Source: an uncultured Armatimonadetes bacterium
Lineage (GTDB): Bacteria; Armatimonadota; Hebobacteria; Hebobacterales; Hebobacteraceae
Direction of reading: 5' to 3'
DNA: 64,000 bases
Assembly: GCA_963716175.1 (NCBI GenBank)
Contig: OY970296.1
Span: 1,632,001-1,696,000, forward strand
Shown here: piece after piece, positions 631 to 5,053 of the stretch
Position numbering within the stretch: position 1 is the first letter of the stretch
Layout of the letters: each line of letters begins with the position of its first letter
Notes under the pieces: generated by a model
Database searches by the model: none
Seen by the model: the letters and a program-made list of their open reading frames with translations, nothing else
What the model was told of the DNA's origin: nothing
Program-made: the position numbers and the translations under genes

Positions 631-1542
631 GTGACGCCTGAGATTCCAGTATTGCCGCAGATGCGGGCCCTCGGACTGGAGGACCGAGCGATCCTGCATC
701 CACTCTTGGGGGAGCTGCGGCCCCAGCAGTCCGAGTTCACGTTCACCAATCTGTTCATCTGGCGTGACGCGCATCAGCTCCGGCTCTCCCGCGTGGGCGA
801 GGCGGTGCTGATCTTCTCGTGGCGGGCCGACCCGGAGGACTCGTTCCTGTTCCCTCCCTTGGGCGCGGGTGCGGATAGGACCGTGGTGCGCGCGGCGCTG
901 GAGCACATGGCGGCGGAGGGGCACAATCCCCGGCTGGCGCGGGCCACCGTGGAGGACCTGACGCGGTTGGAGGTGACGGAAGACGAGTTTGCGATCCAGT
1001 CCGATCGCGCGCAGTGGGACTACGTCTACCCGGTGCAGGACCTGATCGAGCTGCGCGGGAATCGCTATCATGGGAAGCGGAACCACCTGGAGCAGTTCAC
1101 CCAACGCTATCAGTTCAGCTATCATGGGCTGGCGGCGGAGCTGGCGCCGGCCTGTCAGGAGCTGCAGGATCGCTGGTGCGATGAGAAGCACTGCGACCTG
1201 GTGGCGACCCTGCACAGTGAGAGCCGGGCGGTGAAGGAGGCGCTGGAGGAGTTCGAGACGCTGGGGATCACCGGGGGCTGCATCGTGGTGGAGGGGAAAG
1301 TGGAGGCGTTCGCGCTGGGCGAACTCCTGAACCCCGAGACGGTGGTGATCCACATCGAGAAGGCGAACGCGGCCTTCCACGGTCTCTATCAAGCTGTCAA
1401 CCAGCAGTTCCTGGAGCAGGCATGGAGGCGAGTTCCTTACGTGAATCGAGAGCAGGATCTAGGCCTTGCGGGCCTACGCAAGGCGAAGGAATCGTACCAC
1501 CCACATCACATGGTCGAGAAATTCGAAGTGCGCCTGAAGTGA
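631..1542 (+). CDS. DUF2156 / phosphatidylglycerol lysyltransferase-like GNAT domain protein
   Basis: Motifs SEFTFTNLFIW, DYVY...LRGNRYHGKRNH, HIEKAN, YVNREQDLGLAGLRKAKESYHP. Confidence 0.85.
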   Translation: MTPEIPVLPQMRALGLEDRAILHPLLGELRPQQSEFTFTNLFIWRDAHQLRLSRVGEAVLIFSWRADPEDSFLFPPLGAGADRTVVRAALEHMAAEGHNPRLARATVEDLTRLEVTEDEFAIQSDRAQWDYVYPVQDLIELRGNRYHGKRNHLEQFTQRYQFSYHGLAAELAPACQELQDRWCDEKHCDLVATLHSESRAVKEALEEFETLGITGGCIVVEGKVEAFALGELLNPETVVIHIEKANAAFHGLYQAVNQQFLEQAWRRVPYVNREQDLGLAGLRKAKESYHPHHMVEKFEVRLK

Positions 1543-2399
1543 GAGCGCGTCTCCGCCAGCTCTTCGTCTCTGGACTCTGCCTGCTGGCGACGGCCGGCGC
1601 GGCGCGCGCGGCGCCCCGGATCGAGCTGGCCCCGGAAGGACCGCGGCCCGGGGAGGTGATACTGATCACACTGCGGCCCGAGCAGGCGCTGCTGCGCGCT
1701 TCCTGCTCGTGGCGCGGGCGCGCGTATGCTTTCCTCCCTGTCGAAGACGGCTACGGGCTGGTGCTCCCGGTGGCGGCGAGCGCGCGACCTGGCGGCTATC
1801 ATGCCACCATCTACTGGAAATACGAGGACGGCCAGGGCGGAGCGGTAAGCCTGCCGGTGGAGGTGGCACCGAGACGGTTTGGAGTGCAGCGGCTGCGGCT
1901 ATCGGCGAGCCAGGAGCGGCGGTATTCGGCGCCAGAGACGGCGCGGGAGTACCAGCTGATTGGGGCGGCGCTGGACCGGGTGGGCCCGCAGCGGCTGTGG
2001 CGGGGGGATTTCACGATGCCGCTGCATGGGCGTGTGAGCACGGAATTCGGGCTTCAGCGGTACGTCAACGGGCGCTTCGACTACCGCCACCGGGGGCTCG
2101 ACATCGCGGCGCCGCAGGGCACGCCGGTGCTGGCGCCAGCGGCGGGGGTGGTGGCGCTGGCCGACGCCTCCTTCCTGCTGCACGGGCAGACGGTGATCCT
2201 GGACCACGGGCAGGGCACGGCCTCACTCTACCTGCACCTGTCTCAGATCGAGGTCACGCCGGGCGAAGCGGTGGAGCAGGGCCAGGTGATCGGTCGCGTG
2301 GGGGCCACCGGGATTGCGACCGGGCCGCATCTGCATTACGCTGTCTACGTCTACCACGAGGCGGTGGATCCGCGGTGCTGGCTGCACCTTCCCCGCTGA
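1539..2399 (+). CDS. M23 family metallopeptidase (secreted)
   Basis: GTG start overlaps the upstream stop (GTGA); signal peptide; HRGLD, ILDHG, TGPHLH motifs. Confidence 0.9.
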   Translation: MRARLRQLFVSGLCLLATAGAARAAPRIELAPEGPRPGEVILITLRPEQALLRASCSWRGRAYAFLPVEDGYGLVLPVAASARPGGYHATIYWKYEDGQGGAVSLPVEVAPRRFGVQRLRLSASQERRYSAPETAREYQLIGAALDRVGPQRLWRGDFTMPLHGRVSTEFGLQRYVNGRFDYRHRGLDIAAPQGTPVLAPAAGVVALADASFLLHGQTVILDHGQGTASLYLHLSQIEVTPGEAVEQGQVIGRVGATGIATGPHLHYAVYVYHEAVDPRCWLHLPR

Positions 2400-2474
2400 A
2401 GATGGAGTGAGGAAAGCGGCGTTCCCTCGGTGTTACTCTGGCGCGCGCTGCTGCGAGCAGGGAGATCAGATAGC

Positions 2475-2507
2475 GATCGGGCGAGGGAGCATCTCCCTCG
2501 CCCGATC
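2475..2507. terminator. Hairpin between convergent genes (probable terminator)
   Basis: Perfect 15-bp stem gatcgggcgagggag-cat-ctccctcgcccgatc. Confidence 0.65.
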
Positions 2508-2518
2508 TCTTTCGCCGA

Positions 2519-2584
2519 CTACTTCTTCTTTTTCTTCGCCGATTTCTTTGCGACCTTCTTTGCGGCCTTCTTCTTGGCTGGCAA
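2519..2584 (-). CDS. 21-aa lysine-rich microprotein MPAKKKAAKKVAKKSAKKKKK
   Basis: TTG start preceded by the purine-rich RBS aagaagggggg; TAG stop; 12 of 21 residues are Lys; hairpin immediately downstream. Confidence 0.65.
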   Translation of the reverse strand: MPAKKKAAKKVAKKSAKKKKK

Positions 2585-2847
2585 CTCTGTTGCCCCCCTT
2601 CTTGCGTACCGCGTATGCGATGAGGACCGCATCACCTGTGCCCGGGCTCAGGCCCCTTTGGCGCGGCACGTTGATAGATGGCCTAACCGCCTCTTTGGCC
2701 ACTCGCGCGCGTCCGCGCGATGAGTCTGATCGCATATGCCACACTTTGGTCACTTTCTCGCACTCACCTCGCGAAAAAGTTTTGCACTGAGGTCGCGTGG
2801 GAGACGAGAGCGCGACACGAGAGGTGATGTCATGTGAGGACGCGGCA

Positions 2848-2951
2848 CTACTGAGCTTCGCCCAAAGAAATAACGGAGCGAAGCTCAGGCAACTGGTCAG
2901 ACGGGCCCGGAGCGGCGTTCGCACATTACTTCTCTGTGCGAACGCCATTAG
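2848..2951 (+). mobile_element. 104-bp twin-hairpin MITE-like element, copy A
   Basis: CTA...TAG ends; hairpins ctgagcttcgc...gcgaagctcag and ggcgttcgcaca...tgtgcgaacgcc; homologous to 6718-6821 and 15017-15120. Confidence 0.7.
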
Positions 2952-3021
2952 TGCACGATGACGCGGTCATCGGCAATCAGGTGCGCGCGGGGGCCGCATC
3001 GGGATCGACGATGGAGTCGGA

Positions 3022-3306
3022 CTACTCGCGCACGGCGAGAATGGAGTCTTCATCCAGCAGCACCAGGTCCTCGCCGCCTACCGTCACTTCGGTCCCCGCG
3101 TACTTCGAGTAGATTACAGTATCGCCGACCTTGATATGGAGCGGGATACGCTTGCCATTCTCCAAGCGCTTGCCGCTGCCGACAGCCAGCACCCTTCCCT
3201 CCTGGGGTTTCTTGCGAGCGGTATCCGGGAGCACGATGCCGCCCCGGGTGCGCTCCTCTGCTTCGTGCGGGCGCACCAGCACACGATCAGCTAGCGGCTT
3301 CAGCAT
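3022..3306 (-). CDS. groES: Co-chaperonin GroES
   Basis: LKPLADRVLV...TRGGIVLPDTARKKPQEG...VGDTVIYSKYAGTEV; RBS aaggagg. Confidence 0.97.
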   Translation of the reverse strand: MLKPLADRVLVRPHEAEERTRGGIVLPDTARKKPQEGRVLAVGSGKRLENGKRIPLHIKVGDTVIYSKYAGTEVTVGGEDLVLLDEDSILAVRE

Positions 3307-3473
3307 GAGCCTGTACCTCCTTGACGGTGTCTGACAACGCTGTGTTCAGGGCTCTATGAAAGCGGCCTACGAGCCGTGCCAACCCGGGTATCCGGTTCTG
3401 ATGCGGCTTCGGCGCAGACTCGCCCCGAAGCCCGCCACCGCCCTTCCTGGGCAAGAGCACGGACACGGGCGGT

Positions 3474-3502
3474 ATTGTATTTTCCGCCTGTGGGGTTGTC
3501 AA
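3474..3502 (-). promoter_or_regulatory. Sigma70 promoter of groES
   Basis: TTGACA-N17-TACAAT on the minus strand. Confidence 0.8.
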
Positions 3503-3538
3503 GCCAGCAGGGGCAGGAGCAAGCTCCTGCCCAACGAA

Positions 3539-3564
3539 CCCTACTTCGCCAAGGCTTCGTAGGG
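3539..3564. repeat. Imperfect palindrome of the cttcgccaaggcttcg family
   Basis: ccctac-ttc-gcc-aa-ggc-ttc-gtaggg; the same core recurs at about 20610-20633. Confidence 0.6.
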
Positions 3565-3601
3565 CAGGCTGCTTCTGGCCTGCTCACGCAGCCGGAGAGC
3601 C

Positions 3602-5053
3602 ATGGCCTTCGAGGGACTGCAAGACTACGCGGCGGCGCTGGAGAGGCGCGGCGAGCTGCGCACGATTGGGGCCTCGGTTGACCCGGAGCTCGAGATCACT
3701 GAGATCGCGGACCGGGTGCTGCGCGCGGGCGGACCCGCGCTGCGGTTCACCGCGCCCAAGGGATCGCGCTATCCGGTGCTGATCAACCTGTTCGGCACGG
3801 CCGCGCGGACGGCCTTCGCGCTGGGAGTCTCGAATGTGAACGAGATCGGGGCGCGACTGGAGGGCCTGCTGCGGACCCAGCCGCCGAGCTCGCTGCTGGA
3901 TAAGCTGCGGGCGATACCCAGGCTGGTGGAGATGAGCTCATGGGCGCCGCGCCAGGTGGGGACCGCGCCTTGCCAGGAAGTGGCGGAGGAGAATGCCTCG
4001 CTGTTGGACCTGCCGGCCCTGAAGTGCTGGCCGGGGGATGGCGGGCGGTTCCTCACGCTCCCCATGGTGATCACGCGCCATCCCGAAAGCGGGCAGCGCA
4101 ATGTGGGCATGTACCGGATGCAGATCTTCGACGAGCGCACCACGGGCATGCACTGGCACCCCCACAAGGTGGGGGCGGCGCACTACCGAGCCTATCAGGC
4201 GCGGGGGGAGCGAATGCCGGTGGCAGTGGCCCTGGGCAGCGACCCGGCGGTGATCTATGCCGCCACCGCGCCGCTGCCGGAGGAGTTCGACGAGATGCTC
4301 TTCGCCGGGTTCCTGCGGCGGAAGTCGGTGGAGATGGCGCGGTGCCGGAGTTGCGAGCTGGAGGTGCCGGCCGACGCCGAGTTCGTGCTGGAGGGATATG
4401 TCGAGCCCGGCGAGTTGAGAACAGAGGGACCGTTCGGGGACCATACCGGCTACTACTCACTGCCCGCCGAGTTCCCGGTGTTCCACTTGACGGCACTGAC
4501 GCGGCGGGCGCGCCCGGTCTATCCGGCCACCATCGTGGGGCCTCCGCCCAAGGAGGACTGCTTCCTGGGGAAGGCCACGGAACGGATTTTCCTGCCCTTG
4601 CTGCGAATGCAGGTTCCCGAGATCGTTGACATCAACCTGCCGATCGAAGGGATCTTCCACAACCTGGCGCTGGTGCGCATCGCCAAGCGCTATCCGGGGC
4701 AGGCCTTCAAGGTGATGCACGCGCTCTGGGGAATGGGCCAGATGATGCTGACCAAGATCATCGTGGTGGTGGATGAGGAGGTGGATGTGCAGAACCTGCC
4801 CCAGGTGATATGGCGGGTGGGGAACAACATAGACCCGGAGCGCGATGTCTGCTTCGTGCCAGGGCCGGTGGATATCCTCGACCACGCGGCCCGGCTGCCG
4901 GGCTTCGGCTCCAAGATGGGCGTTGACGCCACGCGCAAGCTGCCCGGGGAAGGCTTCTCTCGCCCCTGGCCGGAGGTGATCGAGATGAGCGCAGAGGTGC
5001 GGGCCCGGGTGGACGGGGTGATGGGGACGCTGGGACTGGAGGAAAGAGAATGA
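3602..5053 (+). CDS. ubiD: UbiD-family (MqnL-type) menaquinone biosynthesis decarboxylase
   Basis: NVGMYRMQ, EGPFGDHTGYY, YPATIVGPPPKED, GSKMGVDATRK; mqn gene context. Confidence 0.92.
   Translation: MAFEGLQDYAAALERRGELRTIGASVDPELEITEIADRVLRAGGPALRFTAPKGSRYPVLINLFGTAARTAFALGVSNVNEIGARLEGLLRTQPPSSLLDKLRAIPRLVEMSSWAPRQVGTAPCQEVAEENASLLDLPALKCWPGDGGRFLTLPMVITRHPESGQRNVGMYRMQIFDERTTGMHWHPHKVGAAHYRAYQARGERMPVAVALGSDPAVIYAATAPLPEEFDEMLFAGFLRRKSVEMARCRSCELEVPADAEFVLEGYVEPGELRTEGPFGDHTGYYSLPAEFPVFHLTALTRRARPVYPATIVGPPPKEDCFLGKATERIFLPLLRMQVPEIVDINLPIEGIFHNLALVRIAKRYPGQAFKVMHALWGMGQMMLTKIIVVVDEEVDVQNLPQVIWRVGNNIDPERDVCFVPGPVDILDHAARLPGFGSKMGVDATRKLPGEGFSRPWPEVIEMSAEVRARVDGVMGTLGLEERE

Follow-up and report, generated by a model that had tools for sequence, protein, structure and literature searches.

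The subject of this work is a 64,000-nucleotide stretch of DNA, hereafter the window, from an uncultured Armatimonadetes bacterium (assembly GCA_963716175.1, contig OY970296.1, positions 1,632,001 to 1,696,000), which carries on its minus strand, at 2762-2475, a conserved cassette encoding a lysine-rich microprotein of 21 amino acids (aa). Conservation extends both to the gene, which is unannotated and constrained at the protein level, and to the RNA structure that accompanies it; the cassette is a conserved gene cassette and not a chance open reading frame (ORF). The Lys-rich ORF was found in all 15 genomes of this Armatimonadota family. An earlier interpretation made from the letters of the window, referred to below as the sequence-only reading, had proposed a genuine protein-coding microgene with its own ribosome-binding site (RBS) and terminator, a proposal borne out by the conserved ORF in relatives and by its coding signature. 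The structured leader RNA is the most distinctive part of the cassette and was overlooked in that first reading. With regard to function, a tail-only, histone-H1-like polycation that would bind nucleic acids in a general role is cautiously preferred, by analogy with known Lys/Ala-rich tails.

Organization of the cassette

Read along the minus strand, the cassette would form a self-contained unit of about 290 nucleotides (nt), in which a promoter-like block and about 135 nt of leader precede an ORF with a weak TTG start and a strong terminator hairpin. Within the leader, the predicted hairpins P1 and P2 would be followed by a three-way P3/P3a/P3b element located beside the Shine-Dalgarno (SD) sequence. 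The individual elements are the following.

2736..2762, minus strand: candidate promoter block TGCGA(A/G)-N15-TGGCAT (TGCGAG in the window; TGGCAT at 2741-2736, with a T-run farther upstream)
2703..2720, minus strand: hairpin P1, 7 base pairs (bp) with loop GACG, near the 5' end of the leader
2679..2701, minus strand: hairpin P2, UGGCC and GGCCA around a loop with GAGGCGG; the leader element with the highest sequence conservation
2605..2670, minus strand: element P3, whose 9-bp closing helix (2670-2662 with 2613-2605) encloses P3a (about 2652-2634) and P3b (2633-2614)
2593..2600, minus strand: Shine-Dalgarno sequence AAGGGGGG, 8 nt upstream of the TTG, pairing with the 3' end of the organism's own 16S rRNA
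2519..2584, minus strand: microprotein ORF with start TTG at 2584-2582, 21 codons and stop TAG at 2521-2519, encoding the peptide MPAKKKAAKKVAKKSAKKKKK
2475..2507, minus strand: terminator-type hairpin, perfect over 15 bp (5' arm 2507-2493, 3' arm 2489-2475), with loop ATG

The TTG-started minus-strand ORF announced at 2584-2519 by the sequence-only reading is present in the sequence, and the ORF listing recovers it (2519..2584, 21 aa) once TTG starts are allowed. The peptide consists of Lys and Ala, with no folded domain. Frames of such Lys density are rare in this organism, as six-frame translation of the whole 4.56-Mb genome (66% G+C) holds 5 stretches with at least 8 Lys per 15 residues. 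The strong purine RBS of the same reading corresponds to AAGGGGGG at 2600-2593 and is complementary to the 3' end of the own 16S rRNA (...GATCACCTCCTTT), with which it pairs over 7 bp including one G.U. The succession of GAAAGGGGGG, 7-8 nt and the start codon is laid out identically in every family genome. The perfect 15-bp hairpin said to follow the stop was recovered by ViennaRNA at 2507-2475 and begins 11 nt past the stop codon. The upstream region had been described as about 260 nt of apparently non-coding leader: its non-coding character is upheld, because gaps of 1 and 2 nt in the leader alignment exclude coding on either strand, and its length has to be revised, the conserved leader predicted to be transcribed measuring about 135-150 nt (roughly 2735-2585).

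Competing frames were rejected. The in-frame 38-aa GTG extension (start 2635) meets stops at varying upstream places in relatives and is not conserved. Coding by this extension, and by the plus-strand ORFs 2314-2790 and 2430-2723, which overlap the cassette, is excluded by the 1-2-nt indels of the aligned leader. No Pfam match was obtained for ORF 2314-2790 (+) or for the minus-strand ORF 2466-2948, which lies in another frame.

Coding signature of the microprotein

Codon usage was examined in a pool of 66 pattern-found loci with an ORF (10 from genomes and 56 from metagenome contigs), completed by four family loci that the pattern had missed. This pool yields 56 distinct leader plus ORF sequences and 50 distinct peptides. 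The search pattern fixed the SD, the TGCC and parts of codons 3-7, and left codon 5 free. Among the 56 sequences, the start codon is TTG in 42, GTG in 12 and ATG in 2, and is never replaced by a non-start codon. Codon 2 is CCN and codon 3 is GCN, each with all four third bases (codon 3 is GTA once), and codon 5 specifies Lys or Arg in every sequence (AAG 46, AGG 5, CGA 3, AAA 1, AGA 1). The MPAK(K/R)K N-terminus, constant among relatives, is followed by more or fewer [A/V/T]AKKK units, and 49 of the 50 distinct peptides have lengths of 14-72 residues. A trait of Hc2-like proteins, in-frame copy-number variation of short Lys-rich repeats, is thus observed in these peptides. The overall composition is 58.6% K and 24.3% A, the remainder being V, R, T and P, with K+A+R+T+P+V accounting for at least 99%; Lys and Ala continue, unconstrained, beyond codon 7.

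The stop codon is located at the end of the AAG tract in all loci except L006 (G001, 1681-2073), where it is gone and the frame runs to 131 codons. The near-identical metagenome locus L040 keeps a 40-aa ORF, and the stop loss in L006 may reflect either a true mutation or a fault of assembly. At the strain level, contigs of related strains from four public DNA runs match only 2475-2721; their differences within the ORF are substitutions and 3-nt insertions near the stop, and the indels of the leader and hairpin loop are of 1 nt. Relatives without a conserved ORF and frame-breaking variation, the two outcomes that would have spoken against the gene according to the sequence-only reading, were both sought, and the gene withstood both searches.

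Conserved structure of the leader RNA

The leader is a candidate new cis-regulatory RNA motif, confined to one family. To count its base pairs, 55 distinct sequences were aligned with MAFFT, without fitting the alignment to any structure. Over the entire leader, 85.6% of cells are paired, as compared to 29-47% when the partners are slid by 1-3 columns. Both sides are changed in 17 of 32 leader pairs against a shuffle mean of 9.7, and none of 500 shuffles equalled the observed value, a significance that such controls overstate because the sequences are related. The slid control and the wholesale replacement of hairpins described below are stronger arguments for the leader structure than the shuffles.

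The closing helix of P3 is paired in 98.2% of cells, with 5 of 9 pairs changed on both sides, and L014 and L076 retain P3 around a short loop; for the P3 element, slid controls of 27-47% are set against about 85% paired. In P3b, 5 of 6 pairs are changed on both sides, and an unrelated GGGG...CCCC hairpin takes its place in L035, L078 and L081. Two mutually exclusive pairings with near-equal support (85.7% vs 83.3%) are found for P3a. P2, which has a nearly invariant GAGGCGG loop, is paired in 94.2% of cells over the 55 sequences; a single compensatory change, from G-C to A-U, is seen in L033. The lower value of P1 (65% of cells) is obtained where the MAFFT alignment is poor; its position is hairpinned in relatives despite a sequence that differs between genera, such as GATATCACAT...ATGTGATATC in L015 and GGCCGC.TGG...CCAGCGGCC in L007. 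The SD begins 4-5 nt after the end of P3. For the entire predicted transcript (2728-2466), the computed folding energy is -116.8 kcal/mol, with z = -6.1.

A covariance model of the leader from P2 through the start codon (R1) matched 7 of 151 genomes across the phylum, all in the family (the own genome, which has a single copy, and 6 of 6 others); none of the 144 genomes from outside the family matched. Rfam 15, searched over 1500-4000 at E<=1, returned two sub-threshold matches only (E 0.62-0.67, 19-22 bits vs gathering thresholds of 38-78), one of which is the terminator hairpin taken for a microRNA stem. Two further pairings were considered and discarded. A long-range pairing of TGGCA with the TGCC of the start codon involves 4 invariant pairs without covariation and is more simply explained by promoter and coding constraints, and a sequestration of the SD by the 3' arm of P2 is not retained in L012-type sequences.

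Promoter block and terminator hairpin

Sequence conservation reaches about 210 nt upstream of the start codon. The motif TaTGGCATA is at least 90% conserved over the 55 aligned sequences and is preceded by a GTGCGAA block whose spacing is fixed across the 15 family loci. The promoter motif has 2 matches in total in the own genome, including that of the cassette. The invariant TGGCA was also considered as the -24 box of a sigma-54 promoter, for which the spacing is TGGCAC-N5-TTGC; this was rejected, since the next GC comes some 4 nt too early in the cassette.

At the other end of the cassette, the stem of the terminator hairpin carries the motif GGGCGAGGG/CCCTCGCCC. Among 51 distinct downstream sequences, a stem of at least 10 bp is present in 50, at 4-60 nt from the stop, and the motif G[G/A]GCGAGG in 40, with matched G-C to A-U swaps between the arms. 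The tails of many relatives' hairpins are T-richer than that of the window. The hairpin motif is unique in the own genome and hence is not a generic repeat. Viewed on the plus strand, 2475-2545 reads as the same hairpin followed by the T-rich run CTTCTTCTTTTTCTT, the complement of the Lys codons. This succession has the shape of an intrinsic terminator, so that in the window the cassette would also supply a good one for the convergent operon of an M23 peptidase gene, 75 nt past its stop.

Occurrence and synteny

A DNA search of 40 related genomes with 2400-3020 as the query matched about 2794 to 2520 in all 14 other genomes of the family; outside the family, 1 of 26 genomes matched, through a spurious 25-nt match in an unrelated frame (L016). 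A scan of the genomes of 185,579 species with the exact pattern gave 10 matches, all in metagenome-assembled genomes, of which four are labeled 'Candidatus Hebobacteria/Hebobacterum', three Armatimonadota/Armatimonadetes, two Bacillota and one 'uncultured bacterium'. The looser pattern applied to metagenome contigs retrieved 61 loci, with a Lys-rich ORF in 56; L053, L055, L060, L061 and L068 were dropped as they contain no such ORF. The Hebobacteria lineage is described in PMC10290634, and a literature search on 'Hebobacteria' found only the work describing the lineage.

The cassette is adjoined by the convergent M23 peptidase gene at all 15 family loci. An LPG_synthase_C gene was seen at 11 of them and groES lies upstream at 9 of the 15, being partial at one of these 9; the fetched flanks are short, and neighbors of these two kinds that were not seen do not count as absent. 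In genome G005 the cassette is present three times, its ORFs being 23, 14 and 15 codons long. Promoter block, leader and the same terminator hairpin motif accompany every copy, although the leader of the third is degenerate. The unit of duplication thus spans promoter to terminator.

When 401 genomes of the phylum were scanned with a DNA pattern that represents the N-terminus, matches were obtained in the own genome, in 12 of the 14 other family genomes (the two misses being due to variant codons) and in G017, a member of another family of the same class; the reversed-pattern control gave 0. The G017 micro-ORF (L103, G017:C13, 807-1560, MPAKKKAAKK...) is ATG-started, reads MPAKKKAAKKTAAKKKKR and has no match to the leader model R1. 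In metagenome locus L058, a 29-aa version of the peptide is encoded behind an unrelated leader, next to a convergent gene that looks like a lytic transglycosylase. Since the G017 and L058 copies are devoid of this leader, the peptide both outlives and predates it. A Lys-rich frame ending ...MMATAKKKKAAKK... was an incidental match in G020, from a third family, so that Lys-rich instances are on record in three families of one Armatimonadota class. The G017 micro-ORF is located directly downstream of nrdR (Zn_ribbon_NrdR + ATP-cone). A link to nrdR was nevertheless rejected, as the own-genome nrdR has no Lys-rich ORF next to it; what follows it there is a large gene resembling that of its ribonucleotide reductase.

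Annotation status

The sequence-only reading had supposed that the gene is missed by gene callers. This was substantiated, as none of 18 exact peptide forms, including longer versions with upstream starts, is present in a collection of 15 billion proteins; the test is an exact look-up, and other start choices could be on record. A search of Pfam and NCBIfam at E<=1 with 6 peptides of 21-72 aa gave no match except a chance DUF2188 row (E 0.65), and the Hc2/HctB profile PF07382 did not match the peptides either; since the composition correction of HMMER penalizes such sequences, a profile miss is weak evidence. A word-indexed homologue search with the 52-aa peptide of L008 scored 8000 candidates, none at E<=0.001. 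Among the entries listed by full-text literature searches, no publication dealt with free-standing Lys/Ala microproteins of this kind.

Proposed function and alternative explanations

The peptide would correspond to the Lys/Ala-rich tail of a bacterial histone-H1-like protein, here free-standing, and would act as a diffusible polycation able to bind and neutralize nucleic acid, most likely DNA and possibly RNA. Selection would operate on total charge and not on exact sequence, and the free in-frame variation of length between 14 and 72 residues is proposed to result from selection on charge rather than on a fitted binding surface. The leader and the weak TTG start would limit synthesis or feed back on it. 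As the leader ends by the SD and the weak TTG is used in three quarters of the sequences, translational control by the leader is suggested, possibly with feedback by the peptide; the peptide might, for instance, bind to the leader of its own mRNA beside the RBS, in the manner of autoregulated ribosomal-protein mRNAs.

Several known systems offer a comparison. Mycobacterial HBHA and Ku bind DNA through tails made of AKKA/PAKKA-type Lys/Ala repeats (PMC10665949, PMC3553676), and the number of Lys-rich pentamers varies in chlamydial Hc2 (PMC2848022). Like Hc2 (HctB), Hc1 and AlgP, the present peptides are Lys/Ala-rich, of low complexity and variable in frame in the number of their Lys-rich repeats (PMC2848022), and polyanion binding is the presumed action that they would share with Hc2 and the H1-like proteins. 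Unlike Hc2 (165-237 aa), they are microproteins of 14-72 aa without a Pfam or NCBIfam match, display the conserved MPAK(K/R)K N-terminus, follow a structured 5' leader without an Rfam match, belong to a different phylum and have no recorded developmental link. The tails of mycobacterial HupB, HBHA and Ku have the same repeat chemistry, A/P/V/T plus KK (PMC10665949, PMC3553676). In these proteins, however, the repeats are fused to folded domains, whereas the microprotein consists of nothing but the tail and has a monocistronic cassette to itself. No fusion to a folded domain was found, the ORF being bounded by a conserved SD and start and by the stop, with upstream in-frame sequence that is unconserved and interrupted by stops.

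The alternative given the most weight, though still unlikely, is a lineage-specific accessory ribosomal peptide that would bind rRNA or ribosomes and repress its own mRNA through P2 acting as an rRNA mimic. Very small basic ribosomal proteins such as bTHX, bS22 and bL37 are highly positive and often missed by gene callers. The microprotein resembles them in size class and charge, and the layout of the cassette, in which the structured leader adjoins the SD and the start is the weak TTG in 42 of 56 sequences, recalls that of autoregulated ribosomal-protein mRNAs and operons. The P2 consensus also matches a hairpin of the own 16S rRNA, GGCCTGAGAGGGTGTTCGGCCAC, at 19 of 26 positions; the signal is marginal, as 15 of 300 dinucleotide shuffles match the 16S rRNA as well as P2 does, and the P2 of the window is not itself the best rRNA match. 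In addition, the sole covarying P2 pair (L033) backs a register other than that expected for the rRNA helix, which we take from the E. coli secondary structure. Unlike small ribosomal proteins, the peptides are pure Lys/Ala, have no NCBIfam or Pfam match and vary freely in length, even between the copies within G005, which argues against a fixed ribosomal site. Because the length variation fits selection on charge, the general nucleic-acid-binding role is ranked above such a site, and by analogy remains the reading to which we incline. It is very unlikely that the peptide is instead a binder of another polyanion, either polyphosphate granules in the manner of AlgP or anionic envelope polymers. 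What speaks for this is composition only, together with the neighboring envelope enzymes (the M23 peptidase and the LPG_synthase_C-domain protein) and the precedent of AlgP, a Lys/Ala-rich, H1-like protein that organizes polyphosphate granules (PMC9239181). The peptide has no signal peptide or hydrophobic export segment, the neighbors are convergent and not co-transcribed with it, and the copies found elsewhere (G005 paralogues, G017, L058) sit in other contexts.

The RNA itself might be the functional product, with the run of Lys codons serving as a translation-coupled sensor of Lys-tRNA supply or stalling that would control stability, termination or antisense read-through into the convergent M23/aminoacyl-phosphatidylglycerol operon. 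The structural conservation of the leader and of the 3' hairpin, the position of the latter in the window within reach of a terminating ribosome (11 nt past the stop) and the LPG_synthase_C-domain gene of the convergent operon, a domain that uses Lys- or Ala-tRNA, are in keeping with this idea. It is nonetheless judged highly improbable: a same-orientation gene lies downstream in 0 of 15 genomes, a stop-to-hairpin distance of 4-60 nt and an ORF of 14-72 codons are incompatible with a fixed attenuator geometry, the exchange of Lys and Arg at codon 5 through dissimilar codons including CGA indicates selection on the residue and not on a Lys codon, and the peptide persists with unrelated leaders and in unrelated contexts. 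A classical leader-peptide attenuator was rejected for related reasons, as the next gene is the convergent M23 gene in 15 of 15 loci, leaving nothing downstream on the same strand, and both the ORF length and the distance from stop to hairpin are too variable. A type I toxin-antitoxin toxin was likewise dismissed because the peptides lack a hydrophobic segment. Finally, a chance ORF within a conserved non-coding region, from which no peptide would be made, is close to refuted. Openness as such proves little, since none of the three frames is closed in AAG-rich DNA, but a conserved SD precedes the start, for which only TTG, GTG and ATG are used, codons 2, 3 and 5 vary at wobble positions or between Lys and Arg, the stop closes the Lys tract in all loci but one, and the strain-level indels of the ORF are of 3 nt.

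Several points weigh against the preferred role as a nucleic-acid-binding polycation under leader control. Transcription of the cassette, its start and its translation are inferred from sequence only; the sigma-70 promoter scan of the window did not call the candidate block, its sole match being TTGACA-17-TACAAT at 3502-3474, ahead of groES, and in this window the hairpin has no U-tract and the terminator scan returned 0 sites. Nucleic-acid binding, like the DNA/RNA condensation or ribosome binding put forward by the sequence-only reading, is likewise inferred, from composition and from the analogy with AKKA/PAKKA tails, and peptides of 14-21 residues carry only 8-12 charges, so that their binding may be weak. 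Possible autoregulation is a pure analogy, and the alternative SD-sequestering folds that were examined have covariation support in no case. The SD, the start and parts of codons 2-7 are invariant by construction in most sequences, having been part of the retrieval pattern, so that the fixed positions were given no weight as evidence, and the relatedness of the sequences that underlie the shuffle controls has been mentioned above. Finally, the genome already contains one HU gene and a 122-aa AKK-repeat protein, and the need for an extra polycation is not obvious.

Genomic surroundings and other Lys-rich frames

In the window, the cassette is flanked upstream by Cpn10/groES (3306-3022), on the same strand, and downstream by the convergent M23 peptidase gene, which occupies 1422-2399 of the plus strand and comes after the LPG_synthase_C-domain gene. 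This groES (3022-3306, minus strand) is the third of the genome and an orphan, and its sigma-70 promoter (3502-3474) is close to consensus; each of the two others precedes a same-strand Cpn60/groEL match by about 150-230 nt. A dispersed repeat of about 105 nt with two internal hairpins has one of its copies at 2845-2954, between groES and the cassette and outside the latter; it looks like an element of the miniature inverted-repeat transposable (MITE) or repetitive extragenic palindromic (REP) type. Thirteen other copies with 90-93% identity are present in the own genome, the repeat is not conserved at this site in relatives, and the summed contig depth over it rises roughly 30- to 70-fold in four metagenome runs.

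Other Lys-rich frames were observed in the own genome. The 122-aa ORF (G000:C1:3506104-3506472, plus strand) has a hydrophobic N-terminus and AKK/KAK-type repeats (…KKAKGKAVAKKATKKVAVKAKKAKGK…), and its predicted product is a larger H1-like or secreted Lys-rich protein. L119 (G000:C1:496129-496188, plus strand) is a stand-alone, GTG-started Lys-rich micro-ORF, MSCGSCGKKAAPKKTKKKK, with an RBS region of the GAAAGGGGG type much like that of the cassette, a possible anti-SD hairpin and a strong terminator. Its SCGSCGKK... frame is preserved in G011 and G003, which represent at least two other genera, and its Cys pair hints that the polycationic tail carries a head able to bind metal. A third micro-ORF, L120 (G000:C1:1917722-1917781, plus strand), reads MAGCKTKKTCGTKKKAAKK and is also Lys-rich with a Cys pair, an AAGGAGG RBS and a terminator hairpin; its DNA match is clear only in the sister genus (G005), with a 28-nt match in G011.

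Significance

Gene finders and protein databases are devoid of this gene, yet it is kept in every sampled genome of the family together with a dedicated structured RNA. As a more speculative and tentative proposal, tail-only polycationic microproteins may be widespread and essentially unannotated, serving as tunable, diffusible counter-ions for the nucleoid or the ribosome, and might here be held in check by a previously undescribed leader RNA that senses free peptide, cations or temperature beside the weak TTG start. The leader combines covariation support with a simple ligand hypothesis, namely its own product, and the in-frame expansion from 14 to 72 residues provides a natural series for the charge that such a peptide needs. 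If peptides of this type are abundant, they would be a missing piece in models of nucleoid compaction, ribosome electrostatics and polyamine/Mg2+ balance in uncultured bacteria.

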